From Bacteroidota bacterium (GTDB taxonomy: Bacteria; Bacteroidota; Rhodothermia; Rhodothermales; JANQRZ01): 64,000 nucleotides of DNA. The stretch spans positions 123,757-187,756 of the forward strand of contig JBCDKT010000001.1 in assembly GCA_038746285.1 (NCBI GenBank), in the 5' to 3' direction. Positions 14,554-55,709 of the stretch are shown here, piece after piece. Each line of letters starts with the position of its first letter. Within the stretch, counting starts at the first letter, position 1. The notes below the pieces were generated by a model. It was given only the letters and a program-made list of their open reading frames with translations, did no database searches and was not told where the DNA came from. The position numbers were made by a program, and so were the translations under genes.

Positions 14554-14574
14554 AAGGGTGAGCCGGAGGGCGGC

Positions 14575-15147
14575 TTAGGCCACGTTCTCCTCGCTGATCA
14601 TCTGGTAGAGAAAGGCCCGGGCCTTGCGCCAGTCGCGCTTGACGGTCCGCGCCGAGAGGTCGAGCACCTCGGCGACCTCCTCGATCGAGAGGCCCGCGAA
14701 GAAGCGCAGCTCGACGGTGCGCGCCAGCCGCTCGTCGAGGGCGCTGAGGTGGACGAGGGCCTCGTCGAGCGCGAGGATTTCGTCGGCCTTGTCTTCGACC
14801 GCGACGCGCTCCTCGTCGAGGAGGGTCGGGCGGGCGTTGCCGCCGCGCTTGAGCGCCCGGCGGTGGCGGGCGTAGTCCACGATGATGTGCCGCATCGCCG
14901 TGGCGGCGACGGCGAAGAAGTGCTGCCGGTCCTGCCACCGGCCCTCGGACTGCCCGACGAGCTTGAGGTACGCCTCGTGGACGAGGGCGGTCGAGTTCAT
15001 CGTCTGGCCGGGGCGGCGGTGCCCGAGCTGGCGGTGCGCGAGGGCGTGCAGCTCCCGGTACACCAGCGGGAACAGCTCGTCGATGGCGCCGCGGTCTCCG
15101 TTGCGCAGCGTCTCGAGCAGCCGGGTGACTTCACCATCAGGTCCCAT
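14575..15147 (-). CDS. ECF-type RNA polymerase sigma factor (kinase-associated, ECF43/TIGR02999-like)
   Basis: 'VTRLLETLRNGDRGAIDELFPLVYRELHALAHRQL...TALVHEAYLKL' plus region 4 'LDERLARTVELRFFAGLSIEEVAEVLDLSARTVKRDWRKARAFL'. Co-directional with, and immediately upstream of, a Ser/Thr kinase. Confidence 0.88.
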   Translation of the reverse strand: MGPDGEVTRLLETLRNGDRGAIDELFPLVYRELHALAHRQLGHRRPGQTMNSTALVHEAYLKLVGQSEGRWQDRQHFFAVAATAMRHIIVDYARHRRALKRGGNARPTLLDEERVAVEDKADEILALDEALVHLSALDERLARTVELRFFAGLSIEEVAEVLDLSARTVKRDWRKARAFLYQMISEENVA

Positions 15148-15341
15148 GCGACGTATCCTTCCCTAGCGGCAGTGCCAGAAGACGGGGCGTGTTGACTACA
15201 AAATATAAGGTACCCACGTTACGGCACTTCCGGCCGGAACACAAGGGGCGCGAGGTTAAGACACGGGTTCGGTCGCAGCGCCTCGGAACGGCGCGGCGGG
15301 CGGCGGGTTGTGCCGGCGGCCTCATCACATATACCCTACCT

Positions 15342-31577: not shown

Positions 31578-31677
31578 GTCGGAGTAAACCTTGCCCTGCG
31601 CACCCATAAGGCAGCATTACAAGTTTCCGGTCGTTACTCCGACATTTCCGGGTCGGAGTAAAATGTCGGAGTAAACC
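31578..31677 (+). promoter_or_regulatory. Cluster of GTCGGAGTAA(A) repeats (3 direct + 1 inverted) upstream of hsdR
   Basis: Direct copies at 31578-31590 (GTCGGAGTAAACC), 31652-31661 and 31665-31677 (GTCGGAGTAAACC). Inverted copy TTACTCCGAC at 31634-31643 forms a 10-bp stem with the 31652 copy. The hsdR ATG at 31686 follows 9 nt after the last copy. Confidence 0.5.
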
Positions 31678-31685
31678 GCCTATCC

Positions 31686-34600: not shown

Positions 34601-34892
34601 GGGCCTCACGAACGACGAGCTTGCCTTCTACGACGCCCTCGCGGCTCAGGACGGCGTCACCGATGTGATGGACGACGATGCGCTCGGTGCTATCGCAAAA
34701 AGCCTCGCCGACACCATCCGCCGCTCCGCCACGATTGACTGGACCAAGAAAGAGGCCGTGCGCGCCCGGATGCGCGCTCGCGTCAAGCGCCTCCTCCGCC
34801 GCCACGGCTACCCCCCCGAAAAGCAGGAAAGCGCCGTCGAGACCGTCATCCACCAGGCCGAGGTGCTCGCCTCGACCACGGCTGCGTCATAG
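31686..34892 (+). CDS. hsdR: Type I restriction-modification system, endonuclease/translocase subunit R
   Basis: 1068-aa ORF. N-terminal nuclease region. SF2 helicase motifs '[10 protein letters not shown]' (Walker A) and 'VLADEAHRS' (DEAH). C-terminal '[19 protein letters not shown]' and an HsdR_C helical domain. Confidence 0.95.
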
Positions 34893-36012: not shown

Positions 36013-39000
36013 CTAGCGTGTCAGTACGACCCGCCGCGAGGCGCTGAACGGTCCGGCCTCCATGCGGACGAGGTAGACGCCGCTCGGGAGGCGCGCCCCG
36101 TCGAGGCGGACCGTGTGCCGGCCGGCGGGCATCGCCCCGTCGGCGAGCACGGCGATGCGGCGGCCGAGGAGGTCGAAGAGCGTCAGCCGCACCGTGCCCG
36201 GCTCCGGGAGGGTGAACCGGACGGTCGTCGCGGTGCGGAAGGGGTTGGGGTAGGCCGCGTCGAGGGCGTAGGCGGTCGGCAGGCCGGGCGCGCCGTCCTC
36301 GGCGTCGACGGCGAAGAGGGTCCACGCCGGGTCGTCGCTGCCGAAGGCGTCGCTCGCGCCGAGCGTGCCGGGGTCGGCGTTGCCGGTGGCGTCGCTGACG
36401 GCCTGCCCGGCCCCTTCGTCGAAGCGCCAGTAGCCGACCAGGCCCTCGCTCGCCGGATCGACCGTCTCCTGGCTCGCGGCGATCTGCTCGGGCGTGCGGG
36501 CGACGTTCCAGACGCGCACCTCGTCGATCCCGCCGGGGAAGGTGCGCTCGGGGCTGTTCTCGGAACTTCCGACGCGGAGCGCGAAGTCGTTGGCCGTGAT
36601 GCTGTGGCTGAGGCTCCGCGCGGCGACCTCTGCGCCGTCGACGTAGATCCGCATCGTCGCGCCGTCGTAGGTCGCGGCGACGTGTTGCCACACGTTGAGG
36701 GCGAGCGTCCCGTTCGGCGTCGTCAGCTCCTGCCACGAGCCGTTGCCGAGCAGCAGGTTGGCCCGCCCGTTGCCGCCGACGCGGAGCGCGTAGCCCTCGT
36801 CGTTCCCGGCCCCGCCGGCCTGCTCCTTGTTGAGGACGCTGCCCTGGAACGGCTGGTCGCGCCACGCGGTCGGGTTGATGCGGGCTTCGAGGGTGATCTG
36901 GGTGCCGGTCACGCTGAGGGCGGCGCCGCTGCCGAGGTCCACGAAGTCGTCCTCGCCGTCGAACAGGAGCGCGGCCCCGGCGCTCGCGCCCGTGCCGGTC
37001 GTGAAGCTCCACACCGGGCCTTCGGTCGTGCCCGCCGGGTTCACCTCGTCGGCGCGCCAGAAGTAGGTCGTCTCCGGGTCGAGCGGGCCGGGGTCGTAGA
37101 GCGGGTCGTCGGTCTCGGCAACTTGGGGCGGCGTGCTCGTGGTGCCGAAGTAGACGACATGGCTCACGGCTCCGCCGCCGGGCGTCCACGCGAGGCGGGT
37201 GTTGGTCGGTACGTTCGCCGCGCCGTCGGCCGGGTTGGGGGCCGAGGCGACGCCGGGCAGGTCGAAGCTGTTGACGGTGAGCGTTGCCGGTGCCGAGCGC
37301 GCGCCGGTCGGGCTGACAGCGACGACCTCGACCGGAATCTCGGCCTGCCCGTCGACGCGCCGCAGCGACGGGACGAAGTAGGCCGTCCCGGCAGCCCCGC
37401 CGATGAACTCCGGCTCGCCGCCCGGCAAGCGGCGGAGGACCTCGTAGTGGTGGACCGCGTCGGCGTCGGGCGAGGCCGTCCAGCGGAGCCGGAGCGTGAT
37501 CTCGTCGGCCGTCTCGTCGACCCGGCGCTCGACGGTCACGCCCGAGGGCGGGGCCGGGGCCGGGTCCGCGTCGTAGACGGCCAGCTTGCCGACGTGGACC
37601 TCGAAGCCGCTCCCGGCCGAGGCGGGGACGACGAGGCTCAGCCCGGCGAGCGAGCGCCCGCCGAAGCCCGACAGGTCGAGCGTCTCCACGTTCCAGCCCG
37701 CCGATGCGGCCGGGCCGAGCGCGAGCGTCGCCACGCCCCCGAGGTCGTCGGCAAAGGTCAGTCCGGCGGCGAGGGCCACCGGTCCCGCGGCGTCCACGCG
37801 GTAGGCGACCTCGAGGGTGCTGCTGCCGGTCAGGTCGAGATCGGTCTGAAAGAGGCGGACCGTCTGCTCGGCCGCCACGTCGCCCGCGAGCCGGAGCGAC
37901 GAGCCGCCCTGGTAGGCCGTGTCGAAGTCGTACCGGACCGTGACCGGCGTGCCCGCCGTCTCGACCCACCACCGCCACGTCGGGGCGAGGTCTTGGAGCG
38001 CGAGGTTGTTCCAGCCGTCGGCCTGCCACGCCGGGGCCGCGATGTCCTCGCCGCCCAGGAAATATCCCAGCCCCTGCCCGACGTTGAAGTGCGTCCCGAA
38101 CGGGAGCGCGTCGATGCTCGTCGCGGCGGGGATGTAGTGCGCGATGCCCTTCCAGTTGCCGGCGTCCTCGCGGCTCGGGTCGCCGTCGGCCCCGACCCAG
38201 AGGGCGCGCTCGGCTTCGTAGAAGTTGTCGAGGTTCGGGACGAGGGTTTCGTCCGGGCGGAAGATGCCGAGCGAGGTCCGGTGGGCTTCGCCGTCGGGGA
38301 AGATGCGCGGCATCGAGGAGGCGATCCCGAGGCCGCGCGCGCCGTAGTCGACCCCGGCGAACAGTTCGTAGGGGTCGCGCCCGAGCGAGGTCGCGTAGGC
38401 GTTGCTCGAGGCCAGGTCGTTCGCCGTCCAGCCGAAGTCGAGGAACATGTAATCGGACACGCGGACCTCGCCCTGCTGGAAGAAGGCGTCGTTCTGCGCG
38501 TTGAGCTGCTCCTGCCAGAAGATCGACCCCGACTCGGTCATCGCGTCGTACCACTCGATCTGCAGGTCGGAGTTGTCCTGGAGGTAGATCATGAGGTCCT
38601 GCAGGTCGGTGGCGAGCGCTGCGTTGCCGCCGGCCGTCTCCTGGTTGATGAACCACCCGTCGAAGCCGTAGTACGCGGCGGCCTCGATCAGCTTGTCGGC
38701 GACGGGGAACGCGTCGCCGTCGCGCTGCACGAAGTCGCGGACCCACTGGATCTGCCCGCCGAAGACGGTAGGCGGGAAGAAGACCGTCCCGAGGACCGGG
38801 ATGCCGTGGCGGTGCGCGGTGTCAGTGACGCCGGGGTTGGGCGCGAGGATCAGCCCCTCGCTCGCCGAGCCGCCCCAGAAGATGAGCACCTCCACGTAGG
38901 GCCAGTAGCTGAAGGCGTAGTAGCTCGCGTCGAGGCTCCCCTGCGAGGGGTTGCCGCTCGTCGGGGCGAAGACGGAGAGCGGGTTGATGCCGGCCTCACC

Positions 39001-39255
39001 GAGCCGGGCGTTGCCGTTCGCCTGGAGGCCGGGGACCGCGAAGCGCGAGGCCAGCGGGACCGCCGACCGGTTGTACGGCGCGTCGGGGTCCGTCTCCGGG
39101 CTCCAGTCGAGGATCGTGTTCGGGAACCACGCCGAGGCGAAGGGCTGGTCCGAGGGCACGCTCCGCGCGAGCGGCGGGGTGGCCGGGGTCATCTGGGCGT
39201 GGGCCGCCGGCAGCAGCGCGGCGAGGACGGCGAGGAGGAGCGTGAGGCGAGGCAT
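36013..39255 (-). CDS. Secreted GH85 endo-beta-N-acetylglucosaminidase-like enzyme with LamG domain and T9SS C-terminal sorting domain
   Basis: ATG at 39255 gives signal 'MPRLTLLLAVLAALLPAAHAQ'. GH85-like 'LIFWGGSASEGLILAPNPGVTDTAHRHGIPVLGTVFFP' and 'YYGFDGWFINQET' (N-x-E catalytic pattern). LamG 'ALLFDGEDDFVDLG...WQHVAATYDGATMRIYVDG...IDEVRVWNVARTPEQI'. CTD 'AYPNPFRTATTVRFTL...LTLFDLLGRRIAVL...GVYLVRMEAG'. Confidence 0.8.
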   Translation of the reverse strand: MPRLTLLLAVLAALLPAAHAQMTPATPPLARSVPSDQPFASAWFPNTILDWSPETDPDAPYNRSAVPLASRFAVPGLQANGNARLGEAGINPLSVFAPTSGNPSQGSLDASYYAFSYWPYVEVLIFWGGSASEGLILAPNPGVTDTAHRHGIPVLGTVFFPPTVFGGQIQWVRDFVQRDGDAFPVADKLIEAAAYYGFDGWFINQETAGGNAALATDLQDLMIYLQDNSDLQIEWYDAMTESGSIFWQEQLNAQNDAFFQQGEVRVSDYMFLDFGWTANDLASSNAYATSLGRDPYELFAGVDYGARGLGIASSMPRIFPDGEAHRTSLGIFRPDETLVPNLDNFYEAERALWVGADGDPSREDAGNWKGIAHYIPAATSIDALPFGTHFNVGQGLGYFLGGEDIAAPAWQADGWNNLALQDLAPTWRWWVETAGTPVTVRYDFDTAYQGGSSLRLAGDVAAEQTVRLFQTDLDLTGSSTLEVAYRVDAAGPVALAAGLTFADDLGGVATLALGPAASAGWNVETLDLSGFGGRSLAGLSLVVPASAGSGFEVHVGKLAVYDADPAPAPPSGVTVERRVDETADEITLRLRWTASPDADAVHHYEVLRRLPGGEPEFIGGAAGTAYFVPSLRRVDGQAEIPVEVVAVSPTGARSAPATLTVNSFDLPGVASAPNPADGAANVPTNTRLAWTPGGGAVSHVVYFGTTSTPPQVAETDDPLYDPGPLDPETTYFWRADEVNPAGTTEGPVWSFTTGTGASAGAALLFDGEDDFVDLGSGAALSVTGTQITLEARINPTAWRDQPFQGSVLNKEQAGGAGNDEGYALRVGGNGRANLLLGNGSWQELTTPNGTLALNVWQHVAATYDGATMRIYVDGAEVAARSLSHSITANDFALRVGSSENSPERTFPGGIDEVRVWNVARTPEQIAASQETVDPASEGLVGYWRFDEGAGQAVSDATGNADPGTLGASDAFGSDDPAWTLFAVDAEDGAPGLPTAYALDAAYPNPFRTATTVRFTLPEPGTVRLTLFDLLGRRIAVLADGAMPAGRHTVRLDGARLPSGVYLVRMEAGPFSASRRVVLTR

Positions 39256-39322
39256 CGGGGCAGGGGGATGAAGACCGGCGGAGGATACGAACACGCCCTG
39301 CCGGCCTCAAGCGCTGCTCTGG

Positions 39323-41474: not shown

Positions 41475-41565
41475 GCGCTGCTGGCAGGCTCGCGCTCACC
41501 AGCGGAGACCCCTGTGCGCCGTGAAGCGCAGCCAGCGTTCGCGGGCTTGGCACAGGGGTGTGCTT

Positions 41566-41654
41566 GTCGGTTCGGTGATACGGCGGGGCGGTGTTTTACG
41601 AAAGGAGAGAACCCCCCTCTTTTCCAACCCCGAACCGTCATGCGCACCGTCTAC
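41566..41654 (+). repeat. 89-nt conserved leader/5' end, copy 1 (includes promoter-like motif and first 5 codons)
   Basis: Differs from 42717-42805 at only 3 of 89 positions by hand alignment. Contains TGATAC-N17-CGAAAGGAGAGA (41576-41610) and 'ATGCGCACCGTCTAC'. Confidence 0.9.
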
Positions 41655-42650
41655 CTCGCACTTCTTTCCATGCTTGCACTCCCAGCGGCGGCCCAGTCGC
41701 CCGCGTTCTCCGTGGACACGAGCACCGTCGCCCTCTACACCTTCGACGGGGCCAACCCCGACACGACCTTCGACCTATCCGGCAACGACCTCCACGCCTT
41801 CAACGACGGCACCACCTCTGTACCCGGTCGCTACGGTAGCGCTCGCGAATTTGACGGCGTAGACGACCGGATCGACATGGATGCCGTTCGCGTAGCGCTC
41901 CAAGGCTCAAGTGCGTGGACGCTGGAATACATCGCCGCAGCGACGACGGACGTCTGGATCCCGGTCCTGCTCACGCACACCTGCGGCAACGGATGGTGGC
42001 TCTATGCCGGAGGGACGAGCGCCCGCTACGCGGCGAAAACCACGGCCTCCGGCGGTTGCAACTGGAGCCCCGACCAGACCCTCACGATCCCCGACATCGG
42101 CACGGACTGGCACTACTTCGCGCTCGCTTTCGGAGGCGGGCTGTTGAGCTTCTACATCGATGGTCACCCGGTGGAGAGTCTGCCGGCCTCAGGAGTCTTC
42201 CAGGGCGGCGGCGGGCAGCGGGCATGGATCGGGCACAGCGACTCTGGCGACGGGTTCTATTACTCCGGCTTGGCCGACGAGCTGCGCGTCTCGGACGTGG
42301 CACGGTCCGCAGGCGAGATCTGCATGACGGCGAACGATCTCGGCTGGCCGTGTGCCGTCACGGCGGATGAGCCGGGCGCGGAGCGTGAGGCGGGCACCCT
42401 CTATCCCGCCACCCCCAACCCGTTCGCCGACCGGACAACGCTGGCGTTCGCGCTGCCCGAGGCGGGCCGGGTGACGGTGGCGGTCTACGACGTGCTGGGC
42501 CGCGCGGTGGCGGTGCTGGCCGACGGCGAGCGAGCAGCAGGGCGCTACGAGGTGGCGCTCGACGGTCGAGGCCTGCCGAGCGGGGTCTACCTCGTGCGGA
42601 TGACGGCGGAGGGTTTCGCCGAGACGCGCCGCGTCACGCTCCTGCGGTGA
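41640..42650 (+). CDS. LamG (concanavalin A-like lectin) domain protein with T9SS C-terminal sorting domain
   Basis: ATG at 41640 gives signal 'MRTVYLALLSMLALPAAAQ'. LamG_3 pattern 'ALYTFDG...GSAREFDGVDDRIDM...WHYFALAFGGGLLSFYIDG...ADELRVSDVARSAGEI'. CTD 'PNPFADRTTLAFALPEAGRVTVAVYDVLGRAVAVL...GVYLVRMTAEGFAETRRVTLLR'. Confidence 0.85.
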   Translation: MRTVYLALLSMLALPAAAQSPAFSVDTSTVALYTFDGANPDTTFDLSGNDLHAFNDGTTSVPGRYGSAREFDGVDDRIDMDAVRVALQGSSAWTLEYIAAATTDVWIPVLLTHTCGNGWWLYAGGTSARYAAKTTASGGCNWSPDQTLTIPDIGTDWHYFALAFGGGLLSFYIDGHPVESLPASGVFQGGGGQRAWIGHSDSGDGFYYSGLADELRVSDVARSAGEICMTANDLGWPCAVTADEPGAEREAGTLYPATPNPFADRTTLAFALPEAGRVTVAVYDVLGRAVAVLADGERAAGRYEVALDGRGLPSGVYLVRMTAEGFAETRRVTLLR

Positions 42651-42716
42651 GCGTGCGGTCGGGTGCGGGGGAAGAGGCCGCTCCTCCGTGTCCCGGCTTC
42701 GCGCCAGGGTCTGCTC

Positions 42717-42805
42717 GTCGGTTCGGTGATACGACGGGACGGTGTTTTACGAAAGGAGAGAAACCCCCTCTTTTCCAACCCCGAACCGTCATGCGCACCG
42801 TCTAC
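42717..42805 (+). repeat. 89-nt conserved leader/5' end, copy 2
   Basis: Near-identical to 41566-41654. Contains TGATAC-N17-CGAAAGGAGAGA (42727-42761) and 'ATGCGCACCGTCTAC'. Confidence 0.9.
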
Positions 42806-44845
42806 ATTCTGCTCACGCTCCTTCTGCTCACCGCCGCCACGGCCGACGCCCAGACTCGCTACGAGTGGGCCGGCGGGGCTCAAGGCGACTGGACCGAGCC
42901 CACCAACTGGTCCCCCAACGGCGTCCCCGCCGCCACCGACATCGCCGTCGTGACCGCTGTCGTGGCCGGCAACCCCGTGACGGCGACCCTCACCGAAGCC
43001 ACGACCGTCGCGGGGCTGGAGATCACCGGCAACAGCGCCGTCGGAGGCGACTTCGACCTGAGGATCACCGACCGCCTCCTCTGGTCGAGCCGCGGCGTCG
43101 ACTCGGAGACGTTTCGCGGGACGGGGACGGTCACCCTCGCCACCGGCGCGACCGGCCACATGGCCGAAGGCCCGCCTCGCTTCCAGCTGAGCGCCGGGCG
43201 CACGCTCGTCAACGACGGCAGCATCTTGTGGGACGGCTCCGGGTTCTGGGCAGGCTCGGGCCGCCTCGTCAACAACGGCGAGCTACTCCTCGCGATGGGC
43301 GAGACGACCATCACCTTCTCCTTCATCGCCGACGCCATCACCAACAGCGCGACGGGCACGATCCGCCGGACGGCGGACGGCGAGGCGACCATCGTCTCGA
43401 GCCTCGTCAACGACGGCCTCGTCCGCATCGAGACCGGCTCGCTCAGCCTGAGCGGCATCGTCACCGGCGACGGGGCCCTCGAAGTGGCGGGGGCGGGGCT
43501 GCTGCGGATCACCCGGGCGGTATCTCAGCGCAGCGTCACCGGCACCGCCGTCACCATCTCCACGGGACAGCTGAGCGTGTCGGACACGTACGACGTTGCC
43601 ACGACCCGTCTCGAAACAGAAGAAAGCTCTCTCACCCTCGATATCGACGCCACACTCCCCACGCTCGTAATCGAGGACGGGACGCTGGACGGTAGCGGCA
43701 CGGTCACCGTCACCGACTCGCTGGCGTGGACCGACGGCCAGATGGGAGGCAGCGGCACGACCGTCCTCGGTCCCGCGTTTCTGCCTACCATCGGCGGCAC
43801 CGCCGTCATCCGGCTCGCGGACACGCGCACGCTCCGCACCGAGGGGCCGGTGACCTGGACCGGCGACGCCGACCTCGCGGGGGGCTTCGACAATACGTTC
43901 GAGAACACGGGCACGCTCACCTCCTCGGGGCCGGGTACGCGGCTCCTCAGCTTCCTCCGCTTCCGCAACGTCGGCACGCTCGTCCACGACGGCGGCACGC
44001 TGCGGTTCAGCAACAGCCAGCCGGAGAACCTGGGGACGATCCGCATCGAGGACGGAACCGTCGAGACCATCGCGAACGTGACCGACATGGGCCGCACCGA
44101 GATCGCCGAGACGGGGCGGCTGGCGCACACCTCGGGGACCTACACGTTCACCGAGACGGCCGAGGTCGTCGGCACGGGCGCGGTGTCGTTCACCGCCCCC
44201 GTCGCTAACCGTGCGACGTGGCGGCCCGGCGGCGAGGCCCCCGGCACGCTCACGGTCGACTCCGACCTGCCCGCGCCCGAGCCGGAGGCGGTCTTCGACT
44301 TCGGGATCGGCGGCCCGACGCCCGGCACCGACTTCGACCAGATGCCCGTCACCGGCACCGCGAATCTCGGCGGCACGCTCCGCATCACCCTCACGGACGG
44401 CTTCGAACCCGAAGACGGCGACCGCTTCCTGCTTCTCCCCGCCGCCGCCGTCGAGGGCCGCTTCGACGCGCTCGACCTGCCCGACGGCCTGGAGGCGTTC
44501 GTCGACCGCACCGACGCCGGGGCCGAGCTGGTGATCGGCCAGCCCGTCTCCAGCGAGGACGAGGCGGGCGAGGCCCTCCCGACGGCGTTCGCCCTGGGGC
44601 GGGCCTACCCCAACCCCTTTGCCGAGCGGGCGACGCTGCGCCTCGACGTGCCGACGGCGAGCCGGGTGACGGTCGCGGTCTTCGACGTGCTCGGCCGCGC
44701 GGTGGCGGTGCTGGCCGACGGCGAGCGAGCGCCGGGGCGCTACGAGGTCGCGCTCGACGGCCGGGGCTTGCCGAGCGGGGTGTACGTGGTGCGGATGACG
44801 GCGGCGGGCTTCGCTGAGACGCGCCGCGTGACCCTCCTGCACTGA
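42791..44845 (+). CDS. Beta-helical, autotransporter-passenger-like repeat protein with T9SS C-terminal sorting domain
   Basis: ATG at 42791 gives signal 'MRTVYILLTLLLLTAATADAQ'. Repetitive G/T/L-rich beta-strand units ('GTGTVTLATGATG', 'GTLDGSGTVTVTDSLAWTDG', 'GTLRITLTDGF'). CTD 'YPNPFAERATLRLDVPTASRVTVAVFDVLGRAVAVL...GVYVVRMTAAGFAETRRVTLLH'. Confidence 0.8.
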   Translation: MRTVYILLTLLLLTAATADAQTRYEWAGGAQGDWTEPTNWSPNGVPAATDIAVVTAVVAGNPVTATLTEATTVAGLEITGNSAVGGDFDLRITDRLLWSSRGVDSETFRGTGTVTLATGATGHMAEGPPRFQLSAGRTLVNDGSILWDGSGFWAGSGRLVNNGELLLAMGETTITFSFIADAITNSATGTIRRTADGEATIVSSLVNDGLVRIETGSLSLSGIVTGDGALEVAGAGLLRITRAVSQRSVTGTAVTISTGQLSVSDTYDVATTRLETEESSLTLDIDATLPTLVIEDGTLDGSGTVTVTDSLAWTDGQMGGSGTTVLGPAFLPTIGGTAVIRLADTRTLRTEGPVTWTGDADLAGGFDNTFENTGTLTSSGPGTRLLSFLRFRNVGTLVHDGGTLRFSNSQPENLGTIRIEDGTVETIANVTDMGRTEIAETGRLAHTSGTYTFTETAEVVGTGAVSFTAPVANRATWRPGGEAPGTLTVDSDLPAPEPEAVFDFGIGGPTPGTDFDQMPVTGTANLGGTLRITLTDGFEPEDGDRFLLLPAAAVEGRFDALDLPDGLEAFVDRTDAGAELVIGQPVSSEDEAGEALPTAFALGRAYPNPFAERATLRLDVPTASRVTVAVFDVLGRAVAVLADGERAPGRYEVALDGRGLPSGVYVVRMTAAGFAETRRVTLLH

Positions 44846-44895
44846 GCTCCAAAACCTCCTACCCGTACGCTTCTACCCTCTAGACTCCCGAACCC

Positions 44896-47742
44896 ATGCG
44901 TGTACTTTCTTTTCTTCTCGTTCTCGTTCTGGCGACTCCGCTTCTTCGCGCCCAGCCCTTCCAGGGCCTCGGCGACCTGCCGGGCGGGATCTTCCAAAGC
45001 CAAGCCTTCGCCGTCTCGGCCGACGGCTCCGTCGTCGGCGGGAATAGCGTGAGCGGCGACTTCAACGAGGCGTTCCGGTGGACGGCGAGTGGCGGCATGG
45101 AGGGCATCGGCTGGCTGCCGGAATTCGAGGCGGGTAGCTCGGTGGTGGGCGCGTCGGCCGACGGGGATGTGCTCGTCGGTTGGAGCTATGCAGGCTTTTT
45201 TGACGGCTTCCGCTGGACCGCCGATGGCGGGATGCAGGACCTGTTCGGTTCCTCTGTCAGCAGCGCCGACGGGGTCTCGTCTGACGGGAGCGTTGTCGTC
45301 GGCTCCGTCCTATCAAACGACAATGTAGGCGAGGCCTTCCGCTGGACGGCGGGCGGCGTGACGTACCTCGGCACCCTGGGTGGCGAGTCCCCTTACTCCC
45401 AAGCCCACGGCGTCTCGGCCGACGGCACCGTCGTCGTCGGGGTCTCAACAAACGCCGACGAAAACATCGAGGCCTTCCGCTGGACGGCGAGCGGAGGCAT
45501 GGTCGGGCTTGGGGTAGGTGATTTCCCGGACGGTGCCAACAGGAGCCAAGCGGTTGCCGTCTCGGCCGACGGCACCGTCGTCGTGGGGGGCACCGGGGTG
45601 TCCACCATCCAAGAAGCCTTCCGCTGGACAGCGAGCGAGGGAATCGTCGGGCTGGGCGATCTTCCAGGAGGAAACTTCTTCAGCATCGCGTATGCGGTGT
45701 CGGCCGACGGTACCGTCGTCGTTGGCTATGGCACCACCGGGTCAGGCTTCACTGGCCGCGAGGCCTTCATCTGGACGGAGGCGGACGGCATGCGCTTGCT
45801 GCAGACGGTGCTCGAAGAGCAGGACGTCGACCTCAGCGGCTGGACGCTCAGGGAGGCCACCGGCATCTCGGCCGATGGCACCGTCATCGTCGGCTACGGC
45901 GTCAACCCCAATGGAAACCTCGAGGCCTGGCGCGCCGACCTGAGCCCCACGGCGCGGTGGGTCGCGCCGGCCGCCGGCTTCTTCAACGAGCCTGCGCGGT
46001 GGTCCATCGAGGACATCCCGGACGAGAAGCACGCCCTCATCTTCGAGGCCTACGCCGCCTCGCCCTACACCGTCACCTTCGTCCAGAACCAGACGGCTCG
46101 CGCGCTGACGGTCGATTCCACCTCGGTCCGCTTCGACCTCGGCAGCGCCACGCTGAGGCTCGGTGAGACGACCGGGCGTCCCCTCCGCGTCGGCGTCGAG
46201 GCCGATAGCCCCAGCGCCCTCGCGCTGGAGGGGGGCACGCTGGCCGCCGAGACGGGGAGCATCGGCGTGGCCTCGGGCAGCGACGGCGTCCTGACGCTGG
46301 GGGCGTCCGGAGACGCGGCCTCCCTGAGCCTCGATGGGAGCCTTGGCGTGGGCGACGAAGGTCGGGGCCGCGTCGAGGTGTTGAATGGCAGCACCGTCAC
46401 CATCCGGAATAGCTTGGGGATCGGCTTGTCCGACGGGAGCACCGGCACCCTCACGGTCGGCGACGCCGGACAGCTCCAGGTCACGGACAATCCCTCGGCC
46501 GCATGGATCGGGCTGGGGGGCACGGGCACTCTGGTGGTCAACGGCAGCGCCTCGTTCCTCGGAACGGTCGACGTCGGGCGCGGAGCCCTGAGCGACGGCA
46601 CGTGGACGCTTTCGTCCGCCTCGGGCGAGGCGTCGGCCATCACCCACGACCTGCTGCAGGTCGGCGTCTCCGGTACCGGCGGCCTCGAGGTCCTGGACGG
46701 GGCCACCCTCGTCAGTACGCGGGTGGCGCTCGGGGTCAACCAGGGCAGCCTCGGTACGGCCCTCATCCGCGGGCCGGGAGCGCGGTGGGACGTCTCCGTC
46801 TCGACTCGGATCGGGGTGGACGGCGCGGCGCTCCTCCAGGTCCAGGACGGAGCTACGGTGTGCATCGAAACCGCCGGCTTTGACATCGGCGAGCAGGGGC
46901 GGGTCGAGACGGACGGTACGGTTCGGCTCACCGAGTCCGGCTGCTCGTTCGCCGCCACATCCGGGGGGAGCGCGCGGTCCGGCGGCGCCGTGCTCGCCGC
47001 CCCCGGCCTCACGCTCGCCGAAGGGGCTGAGCTGCAGGCCGACGCGGTGATCCTCGGCGAGGGCGGCGTCCTCGGCGGCAGCGGCACGCTCGCCCTGCCG
47101 ATCACGAATGCGGGCACGCTCGCGCCCGGCGGCACCGACTCGACCGGCGTCTTCACGCTCTCGAACGACTACGTGCAGGCCGCCGAGGGAGCGCTCGCCA
47201 TCGAGTTCGGCGGCACCACGGCCGGAAGCGGCTACGACCGACTCGCCGTGACGGGCGAGGCGGCGCTCGGCGGCACGCTGAGGCTGGTGCGCCTCGTCGG
47301 CTACACCCCGATGGTCGGGGAGGCGTACACGCTGCTGACGGCGGCCGCCCTCACCGGCACGTTCGACGCGGTCGAGGGCCCCCCCGATGTCGAGCTCGAC
47401 GTGCGCTACACCGCGACGGCGGTGACGGCGACGGTGACGGCGGTGACGGTGTCGAATGAACCCGACGCGGCGCGCCCCGACGGCTTCGCCCTCCACGCCG
47501 CCTACCCCAACCCCTTCGACGCCGAAACGGTCGTGTCGTTCGACGTGCCGGAGGCGAGTCGGGTGACGGTGGCGGTCTTCGACGTGCTCGGGCGCGAGGC
47601 CGCGCGGCTCGTGGACGGCGAGGTCGCGGCGGGTCGCTACGAGGTGGCGCTCGACGGGCGGGACTTGCCGAGCGGGGTGTACGTGGTGCGGATGACGGCG
47701 GCGGGCTTCGCCCGGGCGCGCCGCGTGACCCTCCTGCACTGA
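44896..47742 (+). CDS. HAF-family extracellular repeat + beta-helical repeat protein with T9SS C-terminal sorting domain
   Basis: Signal 'MRVLSFLLVLVLATPLLRAQ'. About 7 HAF-type repeats ('SQAFAVSADGSVVGG...EAFRWTASGGMEGIG'). Then passenger-like 'GTLTV/GTLVVNGSA/GTLAPGG' units. CTD 'YPNPFDAETVVSFDVPEASRVTVAVFDVLGREAARL...GVYVVRMTAAGFARARRVTLLH'. Confidence 0.85.
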   Translation: MRVLSFLLVLVLATPLLRAQPFQGLGDLPGGIFQSQAFAVSADGSVVGGNSVSGDFNEAFRWTASGGMEGIGWLPEFEAGSSVVGASADGDVLVGWSYAGFFDGFRWTADGGMQDLFGSSVSSADGVSSDGSVVVGSVLSNDNVGEAFRWTAGGVTYLGTLGGESPYSQAHGVSADGTVVVGVSTNADENIEAFRWTASGGMVGLGVGDFPDGANRSQAVAVSADGTVVVGGTGVSTIQEAFRWTASEGIVGLGDLPGGNFFSIAYAVSADGTVVVGYGTTGSGFTGREAFIWTEADGMRLLQTVLEEQDVDLSGWTLREATGISADGTVIVGYGVNPNGNLEAWRADLSPTARWVAPAAGFFNEPARWSIEDIPDEKHALIFEAYAASPYTVTFVQNQTARALTVDSTSVRFDLGSATLRLGETTGRPLRVGVEADSPSALALEGGTLAAETGSIGVASGSDGVLTLGASGDAASLSLDGSLGVGDEGRGRVEVLNGSTVTIRNSLGIGLSDGSTGTLTVGDAGQLQVTDNPSAAWIGLGGTGTLVVNGSASFLGTVDVGRGALSDGTWTLSSASGEASAITHDLLQVGVSGTGGLEVLDGATLVSTRVALGVNQGSLGTALIRGPGARWDVSVSTRIGVDGAALLQVQDGATVCIETAGFDIGEQGRVETDGTVRLTESGCSFAATSGGSARSGGAVLAAPGLTLAEGAELQADAVILGEGGVLGGSGTLALPITNAGTLAPGGTDSTGVFTLSNDYVQAAEGALAIEFGGTTAGSGYDRLAVTGEAALGGTLRLVRLVGYTPMVGEAYTLLTAAALTGTFDAVEGPPDVELDVRYTATAVTATVTAVTVSNEPDAARPDGFALHAAYPNPFDAETVVSFDVPEASRVTVAVFDVLGREAARLVDGEVAAGRYEVALDGRDLPSGVYVVRMTAAGFARARRVTLLH
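47503..47742 (+). repeat. CTD-coding module, near-identical at DNA level to 44606-44845 and closely related to 42411-42650
   Basis: By hand alignment, the last 108 nt of the genes ending at 44845 and 47742 differ at 7 positions. The other CTDs in the window are much more divergent. Confidence 0.85.
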
Positions 47743-47750
47743 CCGTCATT

Positions 47751-47787
47751 GCGGGGTCTGAGCCAGCGTGCTTCGCTCAGGCCCCGC
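47751..47787. terminator. Bidirectional stem-loop between convergent genes (overlaps the kinase stop codon)
   Basis: GCGGGGTCTGAGC / GCTCAGGCCCCGC, a 13-bp stem with one G.U/mismatch and an 11-nt loop. Lies between the stop at 47742 (+) and the stop at 47777-47779 (-). Confidence 0.5.
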
Positions 47788-50425
47788 CCGCGGTGCGCCG
47801 CAGCGCCTCGGACACGGCGTCGAGCCGGGCCTGCGCGTCCTGCGTCGCTTCGGCGTCCGCCCCCCGACTGGCCGTGAGGACCTCGACGCTGAACCGGAGA
47901 TGGCCCCCGGCCTCGTCGTAGCGCCCCTGCGCGGCGAGGGCCGCGCCGAGGTTGCGCCGGGCCACCGCCACCCGCCAGTGGCCGGCCCCGAGTTCGGCGC
48001 TGAGCCGGTCCATGGCCGGGCGGAGGAGGCGCTCCGCCTCTCGGGCCCGGCCGGCATCGGCGAGGCTGAGGCCGAGGCTGGAGGCGAAGATGAGCGTGTA
48101 GATGTGCTCCGCGCCGAGCGTCTCGAGCGCGGCCGCGTGGGCGGACGCGAGCCGGCCGGCGGCGGCCTCGTACGCCTCCACCTCGTGGAGCATCAGCCCG
48201 TAGTTGTGGACGGTGATCGCCACATTCGGGTGCAGCGGGCCCAGCCGGAGGCTGTCGGCGCGGATCACCCGCCGGTAGAGCGAGTCCGCGACGGCGTGCT
48301 GGTCCCACTCGTCGTAGAGGGTGGCGAGGTTGTTCAGGACGAGGCTCACGCTGGGGTGGTCCTTGCCGTACGCGCCCCGGTTGATGGCGAGGGCCTCGGC
48401 AAAAAGCGGCTCGGCCTCGGCGAGCCGGCCGCCGTACTGCAGCACCGACCCGAGACTGTTCAGGCTCGACGCGAGGTGCGGGTGGCGGTCCCCGCGAAGC
48501 GTGCGCAGGAGGTCGATAGACTCGCGGAGGAGGGCCTCGGCCTCGTCCAGGTCGTCGGACTCGAAGACGAGGACGGCGAGGCTGCCGAGGGTTTCGGCCA
48601 GCCGGGCGTCGGCGGTGCCCGGCCCGGCCCGGTACGCGGCGATGGCCTCGCGGAAGTGCGCGTCGGCCGCGCCCAGGTCGCCCTGCTTGTGCTGCGAGAT
48701 GGCGAGGTCGTTGAGGGCCTGGGCGAGGGCCGGGTCGGCCTCGGCGTGGAGCCGCCGGCGCAGGGCCACCGCCTCCCGGTGCAGCGCCACGGCGCGGTCG
48801 GGCTCGCCCCGGTCGCGCGCGAGCCGGCCCCGCAGCTCCAGCGTGCTCACCACGTCGGCGTGGAGGCTGTCGGGGTAGCGGGCCTGCCGCAGTTCGAACG
48901 CTTCGGCCAGGAGGTGCCCGGCGCGGTCGTGCTCGGCCATGTTGAGGTAGACGTGCCCGAGCGCGTGGAGGAGGTGGGCGCGGACGTCGGGCGCGTAGCC
49001 GGAGGCGTCGCCGAGGCGCTCCTCGGCCCGGCCCAGCACCTCGTACACGTTCAGCGTGTCGCCCTGCGCCAGCATCGGGTCGGCCTCGCCGAGTAGTTCG
49101 GTCAGGAGGACGACGACCTCCTGCTTCTGGGCCAGCTCGCGCGCGGCCCGGTCGCGCTCGCGCGCCGTGGCCCGCTGCTGGAGCGAGACCGCGACGAGCG
49201 CGCCGACGAGCAGCGCGACGAACGCCGCCGCCGCCGCCACCCCGACCCGGTGCCGCCGCACGAACGAGCGCGCCCGGTAGGCCACGCTCTCCGGCCGCGC
49301 CTGCACCGGCAGGCCCCGGCGGTGGCGGCGCACGTCGTCGAGGAAGGCCTCGACGGACGGGTAGCGCCGGTCGGGGTCGTCGCGCAGCGCCTTGAGCGCG
49401 ATCAGGTCGAGGTCGCCGCGCAGGCGGCGGCGCAGCCGGTCGGCTGTCGTACCGTGCGCCTCGGCTGCCGCGTCGGTCACGCGCTCGCTCGGGGGCGCGA
49501 GCCGGTCCCGCTCGGCGCGGTCGCCCGTCAGCAGCTCGAAGAGGAGCACCCCGAGGGCGTACACGTCGGTCGCGGTCGTGACGGGCTCCCCGCGTCGCTG
49601 CTCCGGCGCGGCGTAGGCCGGCGTCAGCAGGCGCAGCCCGGTCTGGGTTTGCAAGCCGTCGCCGTCCGTCTCCGGGTCGAGGAGCTTGGCGATCCCGAAG
49701 TCGAGCAGCTTGACCCGCGGCTCCCCGCGGTCGTTCTCGGCCGCGAGGACGTTCGACGGCTTGAGGTCGCGGTGGACGACGAGCCGGCGGTGGGCGTGCT
49801 GCACCGCCTCGCCGGTCTGCGCGAAGAGCGCGAGCCGGGCCTCGACCCCGAGCCGGGTGCGGTCGGCGTAGGCCGTCACCGGCTCGCCCTCGACGTACTC
49901 CATCACGAGGTACGGGCGGCCGTCCTCGGTCGCGCCGCCGTCGAGCAGGCGAGCGATGCCGGGGTGGTCGAGGCTGGCCAGCACCTGGCGCTCGCGGCGG
50001 AAGCGGGCGAGGACGTCGTCCGTGTCCAGCCCGCGCCGGACCACCTTGAGGGCGACGGTCTTATCGAAGGTGCCGTCGGCGCGCTCGGCGCGGTAGACGG
50101 TCCCCATCCCGCCGCGCCCGAGCACGCCGGAGATGCGGTAGGGGCCGAGCGCAGCGCCCGGCGCGAGGTCGCCCGCAGCCTCTGCTGCCGCGAGGGCGTT
50201 GCGCAGCCCCGGCAGCAGCGGCGCCGCGTAGTGCGTGGCCGACTCGCCGAGCGTGTCCTCGGCCGCCGCCGCCGCGTCGAGGAGGGCGACGACCTCGGCG
50301 TAGAGCGCCCGGTCGCCTCCGCAGCGGGCACGGAGGAAAGCCGTGCGCTCGTCGGGCGGCCGGTCCAGCGCCTCGGCGAGGAGAGCGTCGAGGCGCTGCC
50401 AGCGTTCGAGTGGAGGCAGGTTCAT
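47777..50425 (-). CDS. Ser/Thr protein kinase with transmembrane helix and C-terminal TPR array (second copy)
   Basis: ATG at 50425 ('MNLPPLERWQRLDALLAEAL'). Kinase motifs 'GRGGMGTVYRA', 'VALKVV', 'HRDLKPSNVL', 'DFGIAK', 'TPAYAAPEQ'. TM 'VGVAAAAAFVALLVGALVAV'. TPR array. Same architecture as 11692-14553. Confidence 0.9.
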   Translation of the reverse strand: MNLPPLERWQRLDALLAEALDRPPDERTAFLRARCGGDRALYAEVVALLDAAAAAEDTLGESATHYAAPLLPGLRNALAAAEAAGDLAPGAALGPYRISGVLGRGGMGTVYRAERADGTFDKTVALKVVRRGLDTDDVLARFRRERQVLASLDHPGIARLLDGGATEDGRPYLVMEYVEGEPVTAYADRTRLGVEARLALFAQTGEAVQHAHRRLVVHRDLKPSNVLAAENDRGEPRVKLLDFGIAKLLDPETDGDGLQTQTGLRLLTPAYAAPEQRRGEPVTTATDVYALGVLLFELLTGDRAERDRLAPPSERVTDAAAEAHGTTADRLRRRLRGDLDLIALKALRDDPDRRYPSVEAFLDDVRRHRRGLPVQARPESVAYRARSFVRRHRVGVAAAAAFVALLVGALVAVSLQQRATARERDRAARELAQKQEVVVLLTELLGEADPMLAQGDTLNVYEVLGRAEERLGDASGYAPDVRAHLLHALGHVYLNMAEHDRAGHLLAEAFELRQARYPDSLHADVVSTLELRGRLARDRGEPDRAVALHREAVALRRRLHAEADPALAQALNDLAISQHKQGDLGAADAHFREAIAAYRAGPGTADARLAETLGSLAVLVFESDDLDEAEALLRESIDLLRTLRGDRHPHLASSLNSLGSVLQYGGRLAEAEPLFAEALAINRGAYGKDHPSVSLVLNNLATLYDEWDQHAVADSLYRRVIRADSLRLGPLHPNVAITVHNYGLMLHEVEAYEAAAGRLASAHAAALETLGAEHIYTLIFASSLGLSLADAGRAREAERLLRPAMDRLSAELGAGHWRVAVARRNLGAALAAQGRYDEAGGHLRFSVEVLTASRGADAEATQDAQARLDAVSEALRRTAGGA

Positions 50426-50440
50426 AGCAGCGGCGGTGTG

Positions 50441-50475
50441 TCTCTCCTTTCGTAAAAACGACGCCCGGCGTATCA
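50441..50475 (-). promoter_or_regulatory. ECF-type promoter-like motif TGATAC-N17-CGAAAGGAGAGA upstream of the kinase gene
   Basis: The minus strand reads TGATAC GCCGGGCGTCGTTTTTA CGAAAGGAGAGA. The TGA of TGATAC is the sigma-factor stop codon (50473-50475). The kinase ATG lies 15 nt after the motif. Confidence 0.45.
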
Positions 50476-51060
50476 GCCGCCCGCGTCGGCGTCCTGCATC
50501 GCGTGGTAGAGCCAGGTCCGGGCGCGCTGCCAGTCGCGCTTGGCCGTCGCCACCGAGCACCCGGCCACCTCGGCGATCTCGTCGTAGGTCAGCCCGCCGA
50601 AGAACCGGTACTCGACGAAGCGGGCGAGGCGCTCGTCGTAGCCCGCGAGACTGTCGAGCGCCCGGTCGAGCGTGAGCAGGTCGGCCGCGCGCTCGGCCGT
50701 AGCGGTGCCGTCGGCGACCTCGAGGCCGTCGAGGCGGAGGTCGGCCTGCGCGCCGCCGCGCTTCTGGGCGGTGCGCGCGCGGGCATAGTCGACGAGGATG
50801 AAGCGCATCGTGCGGGCGGCGAGGGCGAAGAAGTGCGCCCGCCCCTCCCAGCCGGCGCGCTCGCCGTCGACGAGGCGGAGGTAGGCTTCGTGGACGAGCG
50901 CGGTCGTGTTGAGCGTGTCGCCGGGGCGGTGCCCGAGCAGGCGGCCGCGGGCGATCTGCCGAAGCTCGCCGTAGACGTGCGGCCAGAGCGCGTCCAGCGC
51001 CGCACCGTCACCGGCGCGGGCGTCGAGCAAGAGCTGGGTCGTGTCGGGGGACGGTGGCAT
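50473..51060 (-). CDS. ECF-type RNA polymerase sigma factor (kinase-associated, second copy)
   Basis: 'TTQLLLDARAGDGAALDALWPHVYGELRQIARGRL...TALVHEAYLRL' and 'YDERLARFVEYRFFGGLTYDEIAEVAGCSVATAKRDWQRARTWL'. Paralogue of 14575-15147. Confidence 0.88.
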   Translation of the reverse strand: MPPSPDTTQLLLDARAGDGAALDALWPHVYGELRQIARGRLLGHRPGDTLNTTALVHEAYLRLVDGERAGWEGRAHFFALAARTMRFILVDYARARTAQKRGGAQADLRLDGLEVADGTATAERAADLLTLDRALDSLAGYDERLARFVEYRFFGGLTYDEIAEVAGCSVATAKRDWQRARTWLYHAMQDADAGG

Positions 51061-51198
51061 AGGGCAGCCCGGCGTGGACGGTCAAGGTATTGAAAAAAGT
51101 GCAGTGAGATAAAGGAGTACCTAGCAGCGGTTTCTCGGCGATCAGACAGCCCTGTCCGGCCTTCGGAACAGACCGTCTGGGCCCCACTGCTGGGTCGA

Positions 51199-51228
51199 TG
51201 ATCCTCGGCGACGGTTTTTAACGATAAG
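51199..51228 (+). promoter_or_regulatory. Diverged copy of the ECF-type promoter-like motif (TGATCC-N17-CGATAAG) upstream of the lipoprotein gene
   Basis: TGATCC TCGGCGACGGTTTTTAA CGATAAG has the same 17-nt spacing and T-run as the other three copies. It lies 30 nt before the ATG at 51258. The following 'CCAACCCCTCAAGCCCATG' resembles 'CCAACCCCGAACCGTCATG' of the 41.6/42.7 kb leaders. Confidence 0.4.
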
Positions 51229-55121: not shown

Positions 55122-55709
55122 ATGTCTTCTACCCTTGCTCCTCCTCATCCGCTGCTCGACGTGTTTCGCCGAGCCGAGCCGCTCTCGGGCGACGAACTGG
55201 CCCGCATGCCGGACCTCGGACGGTGCGAACTGGTCGAGGGCCGCCTGCTGCTTATGAGTCCCACAAGTTGGTTTCACGGTCGCTACGTCGTGCGTATCAC
55301 CGCTGCGCTCGAAGACTTCGTCGCCGACCGCGATCTCGGCGAGGTGTATTCCGGCGAGGTCGGGATTTACACCGGACGCGACCCAGACACGGTGCGCGGT
55401 GCGGACGTGCTTTTCATCTCGCACGCGCGCCTTGCACGCGTCACAAGCCGCAGCTTCCTCGATGTGACTCCAGAAGTAGTGGTCGAGGCGATCTCGCCGG
55501 GAAACACAGCGGACGAGATGGAGACCAAGACGCGGGAGTACCTCGGCGCAGGCGCCGAGCAGGTGTGGATCATTGAGCCGGAGCGGAAGCGGGTGCGTGT
55601 CGAGCGGGCGGAGGGCGCGCCGCTCGTACTCGGACCGGGCGACGTGCTGCGCGGCGAGGGGCTACTCGACCGGTTCACGCTCGACCTCGACGTGCTCTTC
55701 CGGGCGTGA
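55122..55709 (+). CDS. Uma2-family (DUF820) putative endonuclease
   Basis: 'CELVEGRLLLMSPTSWFHG', 'GADVLFISHARL', 'PEVVVEAISPGNTADEMETKTREYLGAGAEQVWIIEP' give the PD-(D/E)xK-like Uma2 pattern. Confidence 0.8.
   Translation: MSSTLAPPHPLLDVFRRAEPLSGDELARMPDLGRCELVEGRLLLMSPTSWFHGRYVVRITAALEDFVADRDLGEVYSGEVGIYTGRDPDTVRGADVLFISHARLARVTSRSFLDVTPEVVVEAISPGNTADEMETKTREYLGAGAEQVWIIEPERKRVRVERAEGAPLVLGPGDVLRGEGLLDRFTLDLDVLFRA

Follow-up and report, generated by a model that had tools for sequence, protein, structure and literature searches.

A candidate promoter motif accompanies one clade of kinase-linked ECF sigma factors and precedes predicted secreted-protein genes in Rhodothermota

Introduction

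Which protein reads the promoter-like motif that recurs around a sigma factor gene and its neighbouring kinase gene in a member of the Rhodothermota? The motif, TGATMC-N17-CGAWA, is found in a 64,000-nt (64-kb) stretch of DNA from a Bacteroidota bacterium (GenBank assembly GCA_038746285.1, contig JBCDKT010000001.1, positions 123,757 to 187,756, forward strand), referred to below as the window. A first-pass annotation, made from the sequence alone, had likened it to promoters of extracytoplasmic function (ECF) sigma factors. It had also proposed that the genes behind the motif, which include cargo genes of the type IX secretion system (T9SS) and a lipoprotein gene, form a regulon of the ECF sigma factor encoded at 50473-51060, the second of two sigma factors in the window whose genes adjoin a kinase gene. 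Comparison with related genomes indicates that the motif sites are likely target promoters of this sigma factor.

To our knowledge, kinase-activated ECF sigma factors are widespread and only two such systems have been studied, EcfP of Vibrio and EcfK of Xanthomonas. The hallmark of their group, ECF43, is an uncharged (Q/S)TTA in place of DAED, an acidic motif in contact with the beta' subunit; a neighbouring Hanks kinase phosphorylates the threonine, by which the charge is restored and the sigma factor activated (PMC13147305, PMC8999054, PMC8103513).

Results

The motif occurs four times in the window

A pattern search with TGATMC-N17-CGAWA, the expression taken over from the first-pass annotation, returned exactly four matches in the window, compared with 0.02 expected by chance, and none of 100 dinucleotide-preserving shuffles reached four. 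The matches coincide with the sites found by direct reading. They are listed here with their scores from the weight matrix described below.

41576-41610, plus strand: site a, TGATAC-N17-CGAAAG GAGAGA (regex match 41576-41603); 25.7 bits; 36 nt 5' of the ATG of a LamG/T9SS gene
42727-42761, plus strand: site b, TGATAC-N17-CGAAAG GAGAGA (regex match 42727-42754); 30.7 bits; 36 nt 5' of the ATG of a beta-helix T9SS gene
50441-50475, minus strand: site c, TGATAC-N17-CGAAAG GAGAGA (regex match 50448-50475); 27.0 bits; 22 nt 5' of the kinase ATG
51199-51228, plus strand: site d, TGATCC-N17-CGATAAG (regex match 51199-51226); 23.3 bits; 31 nt 5' of the lipoprotein ATG

All four sites are intergenic and oriented toward a gene, 22-36 nt upstream of its ATG. 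The spacer measures 17 nt at 4/4 sites and ends in a T-run, as originally read; the T-run can now be assigned to the conserved motif itself (see below). Site c lies within the 47-nt gap between the sigma and kinase genes, and its TGA is the sigma stop codon, which bears out the reported overlap. The orientations and neighbours of the other copies were also read correctly: site d is divergent from the sigma gene and points to the lipoprotein gene, and sites a and b stand ahead of the LamG and beta-helix genes.

The count of four instances needs qualification. All are real, but sites a and b are paralogous, being part of a nearly identical block of ~110 nt duplicated at 41543-41654 and 42694-42805. 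The block consists of the putative promoter, the 5' untranslated region (ACCCCCCTCTTTTCCAACCCCGAACCGTC) and the first five codons (MRTVY), and its flanks have diverged, including the remainder of both signal peptides. Sites a and b therefore represent one event, and the window holds three independent instances, not four. The near-identity of the two copies suggests gene conversion or a functional leader. A similar tandem promoter duplication stands ahead of T9SS genes in a related locus (L084).

When up to two mismatches were allowed, 13 copies were found in the window compared with 19 expected; this is chance level, and hence the window contains no additional degenerate copies. A terminator made up of a GC-rich spacer and the T-run was rejected as a reading, as terminator-like sites occur at chance level and the T-run is also present at divergent sites without an upstream gene.

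The motif is restricted to one clade of sigma factors

A scan with the sigma protein, with one genome per species, gave 79 loci, and look-ups of closer relatives added more. The unchanged expression matched 26 times in the scanned loci, and all matches were in the loci whose sigma genes are most similar, L001-L018. Without the window and duplicate loci, there were 25 sites in 17 clade loci (231 kb) compared with 0.21 expected, and 13 of these 17 loci carry at least one exact site. In contrast, the exact expression was absent from the 62 other loci with more distant paralogues (872 kb; 0.68 expected). When 85 sigma copies were placed in a neighbour-joining tree, every locus with strong sites fell into one clade, which includes the second sigma factor of the window. 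This comparative test supports the proposed regulon of the sigma factor at 50473-51060.

The consensus derived from 59 non-redundant sites was TGATMC-N12-tttT-N-CGAtag, refined to TGATMC-N12-TTTT-N-CGATAG. Positions left free by the expression are also conserved: a T two bases before the -10 box is present in 85-87% of sites, inside a T-rich run of four, and CGATA is followed by G in ~70% of sites, with a purine-rich stretch next. Conservation across genomes is confined to the two boxes and the T-run, and the rest of the spacer and the sequence past ~+15 vary freely. Spacer length was 17 nt at 25/25 exact sites elsewhere. The -10 element CGAAAG of the window is a variant; the family-wide form is CGATAG. 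The ECF-type layout ascribed to the motif was recovered, with two boxes, fixed 17-nt spacing, one orientation and a position shortly upstream of genes.

Loci as different in composition as those of AT-rich Balneolaceae (L013, L018) and of 70% GC genomes have the motif, and base composition is therefore no explanation for it. It is shared at syntenic positions by genomes that differ by ~30 points in GC and whose sigma factors are only 50-66% identical. Closer relatives, with 68-79% identity (L080, L082, L084, L086), display the same architecture, including tandem duplicated promoters before T9SS genes. Over ~20 genomes, only the sigma and kinase genes consistently adjoin the motif.

For scoring of the window sites, a weight matrix was built only from sites of other genomes. 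The four window sites scored 23.3-30.7 bits and the next best window position 7.8 bits, while the maxima in 100 simulated sequences averaged 8.8 bits and reached 20.8 bits at the highest; at its fixed positions the matrix is circular, as its sites were chosen with the window-derived expression.

Sites recur at the sigma/kinase junction and before genes for exported proteins

At the sigma/kinase junction, a site of at least 18 bits was present in 13 of 19 clade members, whereas the maximum elsewhere (~65 copies) was 6.6 bits, with no site. In the window, L080, L016 and L005, and for the second sigma copy of L012, the sigma gene terminates at the TGA of the -35 box. In L084 the junction site lies inside the sigma 3' end because the sigma and kinase genes overlap. 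A divergent site upstream of the sigma gene, facing the neighbouring gene, was found in L002-L005, L009, L012, L013, L016, L018, L021, L080, L082, L084 and L086. More distant sites precede genes for exported proteins (T9SS cargo, lipoproteins), and nearly every downstream open reading frame starts with a signal peptide or lipobox.

The placement of the motif relative to genes is not random in the clade loci. An ATG-started open reading frame of at least 200 aa begins 5-80 nt downstream of 18 of the 25 sites, compared with 12.6% of random positions in the same loci (P ~1e-11). The distance from site to start codon elsewhere was 6-71 nt, with one exception of 196 nt.

Orthologues of the window lipoprotein in L012 (74% identity), L088 (60%) and L089 (58%) have TGATAC-N17-CGA.. 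~20-35 nt before the ATG. The beta-helix protein is one of a 28-member family that is limited to Rhodothermales; orthologues with the motif were found in L008/L210, L012, L080 and L213, in most cases next to a sigma gene and divergent from it. The other predicted targets are mostly without a known domain.

The sigma factor and its neighbouring kinase

Gene layout in the window was obtained from codon-position GC gene calling and domain searches (Pfam, NCBIfam). The central gene pair is as follows.

50473-51060, minus strand: ECF sigma factor, 195 aa; TIGR02999, PF07638; NTTA at residues 51-54
47777-50425, minus strand: Hanks-type Ser/Thr kinase; PF00069 (135 bits), PF13424; hydropathy

The sigma factor matched PF07638 with 175 bits over profile positions 3-184 of 185 and TIGR02999 with 200.2 bits (cut-off 126.15), and by sequence it is a small member of the sigma-70 family in which only the sigma2 and sigma4 regions are present. 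In a BLAST comparison with Escherichia coli RpoE, region 4 alone aligned. Its NTTA is followed by LVHEAY, and both threonines are kept in 83 of the 85 sigma copies. By analogy with ECF43, this NTTA would be equivalent to the DAED position (PMC13147305, PMC8999054). Together, TIGR02999/PF07638 membership, kinase adjacency and NTTA suggest an ECF43-like protein; ECF59, ECF61, ECF62 and ECF217 are the other kinase-linked groups.

The kinase gene begins 47 nt downstream of the sigma gene on the same strand, a pairing also seen in relatives. Its product has an N-terminal cytoplasmic catalytic domain, one transmembrane helix (aa ~394-414) and C-terminal tetratricopeptide (TPR) repeats, and because of this arrangement it is predicted to be a receptor kinase like PknS and PknT. 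In addition, the sigma-linked kinases of the window (50140-50425, minus strand) and of L001-L018 have a conserved segment of ~90 aa N-terminal to the catalytic domain, of the form ..SPERWQxIDxLFxxALDRPPDERxAFLRxAC.., with no Pfam match. This segment may be a docking region for the sigma factor. Pfam and NCBIfam searches detected no anti-sigma domain near the sigma gene, whose neighbours are the kinase gene and the gene of the domainless lipoprotein; a novel type of anti-sigma factor may have escaped these searches.

Predicted target genes in the window

Four genes downstream of the sigma/kinase pair's motif copies, or adjoining them, were considered as predicted outputs.

41640-42650, plus strand: predicted target of site a, secreted Laminin_G_3 protein, 336 aa; PF13385, PF18962, TIGR04183; signal peptide visible in translation
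42791-44845, plus strand: predicted target of site b, adhesin-like beta-solenoid (beta-helix) T9SS protein, 684 aa; PF18962; AlphaFold2 model
44896-47742, plus strand: HAF-repeat T9SS cargo gene; PF18962, TIGR02913
51258-52604, plus strand: predicted target of site d, lipoprotein, 448 aa, lipobox FTAC; no known domain

The three genes from 41640 to 47742 all encode C-terminal PF18962/TIGR04183 domains, and signal peptides are visible in their translations; by sequence, their products are T9SS type A cargo. The gap between the beta-helix and HAF-repeat genes is only 50 nt and contains no motif, and for this reason the HAF-repeat gene is probably in the same transcription unit as the gene behind site b.

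The label of the beta-helix protein was confirmed by an AlphaFold2 model (predicted local distance difference test score, pLDDT, 89.6), in which a long beta-solenoid precedes the T9SS sorting domain. Among PDB entries, Foldseek matched it best to the autotransporter passenger domains of Ag43 (7koh) and Hap (3syj), with E ~1e-5, and the model suggests an adhesin-like role. The model of the lipoprotein (pLDDT 51) was unusable and was set aside. This protein had no Pfam or NCBIfam match in the domain searches, only 6 homologues among 5.8 billion proteins, and no relatives in the metagenome scan. Sequence searches of the sigma factor, the lipoprotein and the beta-helix protein against solved structures gave no match.

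Probable assignment of the motif to the sigma factor

The motif might be a real regulatory site that is read by another protein, either a different sigma factor or a DNA-binding regulator encoded elsewhere, and merely lie beside the sigma/kinase pair. Several TIGR02999 paralogues per genome are indeed present (two in the window and two each in L012, L032, L058 and L080). Moreover, a sister group of sigma factors (L008, L210 and the first copy of L012) has a similar motif with CGAGWG or CGAATG as -10 box, so that cross-recognition between paralogues is possible. However, no genes other than those for the sigma factor and kinase keep company with the motif throughout, and the motif follows one sigma clade and is missing at ~65 paralogous copies, including many from the same orders. 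In addition, the constant 17-nt spacing, single orientation and placement 20-70 nt ahead of start codons are typical of recognition by a sigma factor and not by a dimeric regulator. We consider a different reader unlikely.

Alternatively, the element could act in RNA, as a shared 5' leader for a translational regulator or structure. Its short distance from start codons (22-36 nt), the purine-rich stretch after the -10 box and the near-identity of sites a and b through the 5' untranslated region into the first five codons would fit such a role, but folding energies equal those of shuffled sequences (z -0.8 to +1.8) and no Rfam match was found. Across genomes only the boxes and T-run are conserved, and the variable spacer and downstream part give no sign of pairing. 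An RNA element would also include the sigma stop codon at site c in many genomes, and at divergent sites, which lack an upstream gene, its transcription would need a promoter farther away in intergenic regions as short as 70-140 nt. An RNA role is thus judged very improbable. Least probable of all are functionless dispersed repeats from local duplication: although a and b arose by one duplication and a, b and c have 12 identical bases in common (CGAAAGGAGAGA), only ~10/17 spacer bases of c are like those of a/b, with different flanks, d deviates in both boxes, and the reading is effectively refuted by conservation of the same motif at syntenic positions across the divergent genomes described above.

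Several results weigh against the sigma factor at 50473-51060 as the reader of the motif, in addition to the circularity of the matrix. First, the boxes TGATMC and CGATAG depart from the commonest ECF pattern (GGAAC / CGT); what they have in common with many ECF groups is the final C of the -35 box and the CG of the -10 box, not AAC or CGT, and boxes vary between ECF groups. Second, the junction site is missing in 6 of 19 clade members. Third, a metagenome scan with TGATMC-N12-TTTT-N-CGATAG gave at least 120 matches, mostly in AT-rich unrelated contigs, and lent no support; no related sigma gene was located near any of the matches listed. In a database of such size chance matches prevail, which makes the scan uninformative. 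In nine unrelated metagenome contigs (L105, L139, L172, L181, L186, L193, L199, L200, L207), a longer conserved sequence in common, TGATCCGMAGYCGTTTCATTTTYCGATAGAACCAGAC, matches the pattern, again with no related sigma gene near it; this is probably a conserved coding or repeat element without relation to the motif described here.

Fourth, L211 and L212, with two of the seven beta-helix orthologues examined, have another box upstream of the gene, GCGTCATGCG, and regulon membership is therefore conserved but not universal. At L211:3890-4000 and L212:650-756, where the motif is missing, the common box (A)CGCGTCATGCG is located ~60-70 nt before the beta-helix ATG, and in L212 a kinase gene directly follows the beta-helix target. 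This box may reflect a promoter swap to another paralogous sigma factor.

Finally, the motif is missing upstream of the sigma gene itself, where the best same-strand score within 300 nt was -5.5 bits. ECF systems do not usually show such an absence. Upstream of their own sigma gene, L010 (25.4 bits) and perhaps L017 (11.2 bits) have the motif, and no other clade member does. Classical ECF autoregulation is therefore not indicated, and any feedback would act on the kinase.

These points notwithstanding, adjacency and clade restriction argue for the sigma factor as the reader, short of proof, and the four sites are in our judgement likely to be its target promoters.

A model for the sigma/kinase module

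The proposed mechanism is as follows. TGATMC would serve as -35 box and CGA(T/A)AG as -10 box, 17 nt apart, with a T-rich spacer end. The sigma gene would have a different promoter, probably one of the Bacteroidota housekeeping type, and the sigma factor would stay inactive until phosphorylated, with a threonine of NTTA as the likely acceptor (T53 by analogy with EcfP). The phosphorylating enzyme would be the adjacent membrane-spanning Hanks kinase, whose TPR domain is predicted to face outwards. Once active, the sigma factor would direct RNA polymerase to the four promoters, where transcription would start. Site c, whose -35 box includes the sigma stop codon, would raise kinase expression and thus provide positive feedback on the sensor, not on the sigma factor; site d would drive the divergent lipoprotein gene; and sites a and b, as duplicated promoters, would drive the genes for the T9SS-secreted LamG and adhesin-like beta-helix proteins, probably with the HAF-repeat gene expressed along with b.

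A simple scan detected no sigma-70-type promoters in the region. An AT-rich element was observed ~45-60 nt before the ATG of both window sigma genes, within otherwise 70% GC DNA (51095-51125, minus strand, GGTACTCCTTTATCTCACTGCACTTTTTTCAATACC; 15195-15225, minus strand, GGTACCTTATATTTTGTAG), and L080 has CTACCTTTCG at the equivalent place. The -7 box of Bacteroidota is TAnnTTTG, and the AT-rich element may be a housekeeping promoter related to it.

Paralogous systems and other genes of the window

The first sigma/kinase pair of the window (11692-15162, minus strand) belongs to the same family, with a TIGR02999 score of 211 bits for the sigma factor and Pkinase and TPR domains in the kinase. 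Its sigma factor is 49% identical to the second and divergently adjoins a T9SS cargo gene (15342-18182, plus strand). TGATMC-N17-CGAWA was found neither at the junction of this pair nor upstream of it, and no common box was obvious by eye among its relatives, one of which (L050) has a divergent TGATCC-N17-CGTTTC.

In the sister group noted above, with 55-61% identity (the first copy of L012 is at 10001-10579), sigma and kinase genes overlap. The related motif here, TGATCC/TGACAC-N17-CGAGWG or CGAATG, differs in its -10 box; the 3' end of the sigma gene contains one copy, and another is divergent before a beta-helix orthologue.

The window contains at least eight T9SS-cargo genes. Further genes are listed below.

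31662-34892, plus strand: type I restriction R subunit
36013-39306, minus strand: secreted GH85 endo-beta-N-acetylglucosaminidase with LamG and T9SS domains
55122-55709, plus strand: Uma2-family endonuclease

Discussion

In this study, we describe a sharply defined consensus, TGATMC-N12-TTTT-N-CGATAG, for one sigma clade, which lets the regulon of the clade be predicted in any Rhodothermota genome. The wiring is conserved and places the sensor kinase, not the sigma factor, under predicted positive feedback. We slightly favour a wider view for the kinase-activated ECF clade from Rhodothermales to Balneolales: the sigma factor would not regulate its own gene, a promoter often fused to the sigma stop codon would amplify the receptor kinase only, and promoters of the same type would drive a small, fast-evolving surface set of T9SS-secreted adhesin- or lectin-like proteins and lipoproteins. 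If this view holds, the consensus and regulon would be the first to be defined for the sigma family in the Bacteroidota/Rhodothermota lineage, and the sigma/kinase module would exemplify sensor-only feedback.

The predicted outputs are surface or secreted proteins of unknown function, and for this reason the module probably remodels the cell surface upon an external cue sensed by the TPR domain. A cultured organism of the clade with a complete genome is available, Roseithermus sacchariphilus; in its strain MEBiC09517 (CP030158) the junction site reads TGATCC-N17-CGATAG (L001, position 10612). The consensus may be used in annotation and in the design of orthogonal sigma/promoter pairs. By the standards of computational prediction the evidence is strong. 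The conceptual surprise is moderate; concepts are unchanged, and the regulon prediction is solid but ordinary.

In the literature searched, no description was found of the promoter logic of EcfP or EcfK, nor of an internal promoter on a sigma stop codon with kinase-only feedback. The consensus, the T-rich element before the -10 box, the stop-codon promoter for the kinase and the association with T9SS cargo and lipoproteins in Rhodothermota appear to be undescribed there. The same limited search found no published ECF43 promoter consensus, and overlap with known motifs is possible.

The closest known systems are those of ECF43, namely EcfP/PknT of Vibrio parahaemolyticus and EcfK/PknS of Xanthomonas citri. 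Like them, the window system has a sigma factor with sigma2 and sigma4 only, an adjoining gene for a transmembrane Hanks kinase and no anti-sigma factor gene, and an uncharged xTTA with conserved threonines (NTTA here, STTA in EcfP, QTTA in the ECF43 consensus). The outputs of ECF43 systems are the type VI secretion system in Xanthomonas and polymyxin resistance in Vibrio (PMC13147305, PMC8999054); to judge from its predicted targets, the window system is alike in controlling envelope and secretion functions. It differs in phylum (Rhodothermota/Bacteroidota), in the TPR-repeat sensor of the kinase and in its predicted targets, T9SS cargo and a lipoprotein.

Promoters of SigW, SigX and SigM in Bacillus subtilis are of the TGAAAC-N16/17-CGTA type. 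They resemble the motif, as the first-pass annotation had remarked, in the bipartite layout, a -35 box ending in C, a 17-nt spacer and a -10 box starting with CG, and the predicted regulon is likewise a small set of envelope and secreted proteins that includes part of the sigma factor's own operon. In contrast, the -35 core here is GATMC instead of AAC, the -10 box is CGATAG, and a conserved T-run lies directly 5' of the -10 box; furthermore, the sigma gene is predicted to lack autoregulation, and a kinase would take the place of the anti-sigma factor.

SigP of Porphyromonas gingivalis is activated through the response regulator PorX (PorXY) and controls genes of the T9SS machinery. Both SigP and the sigma factor of the window are ECF sigma factors from the Bacteroidota lineage with a link to type IX secretion-related genes. 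Unlike SigP, the window sigma factor belongs to a different sigma family, would be activated by a Ser/Thr kinase rather than PorX, and is predicted to control cargo proteins rather than machinery genes.

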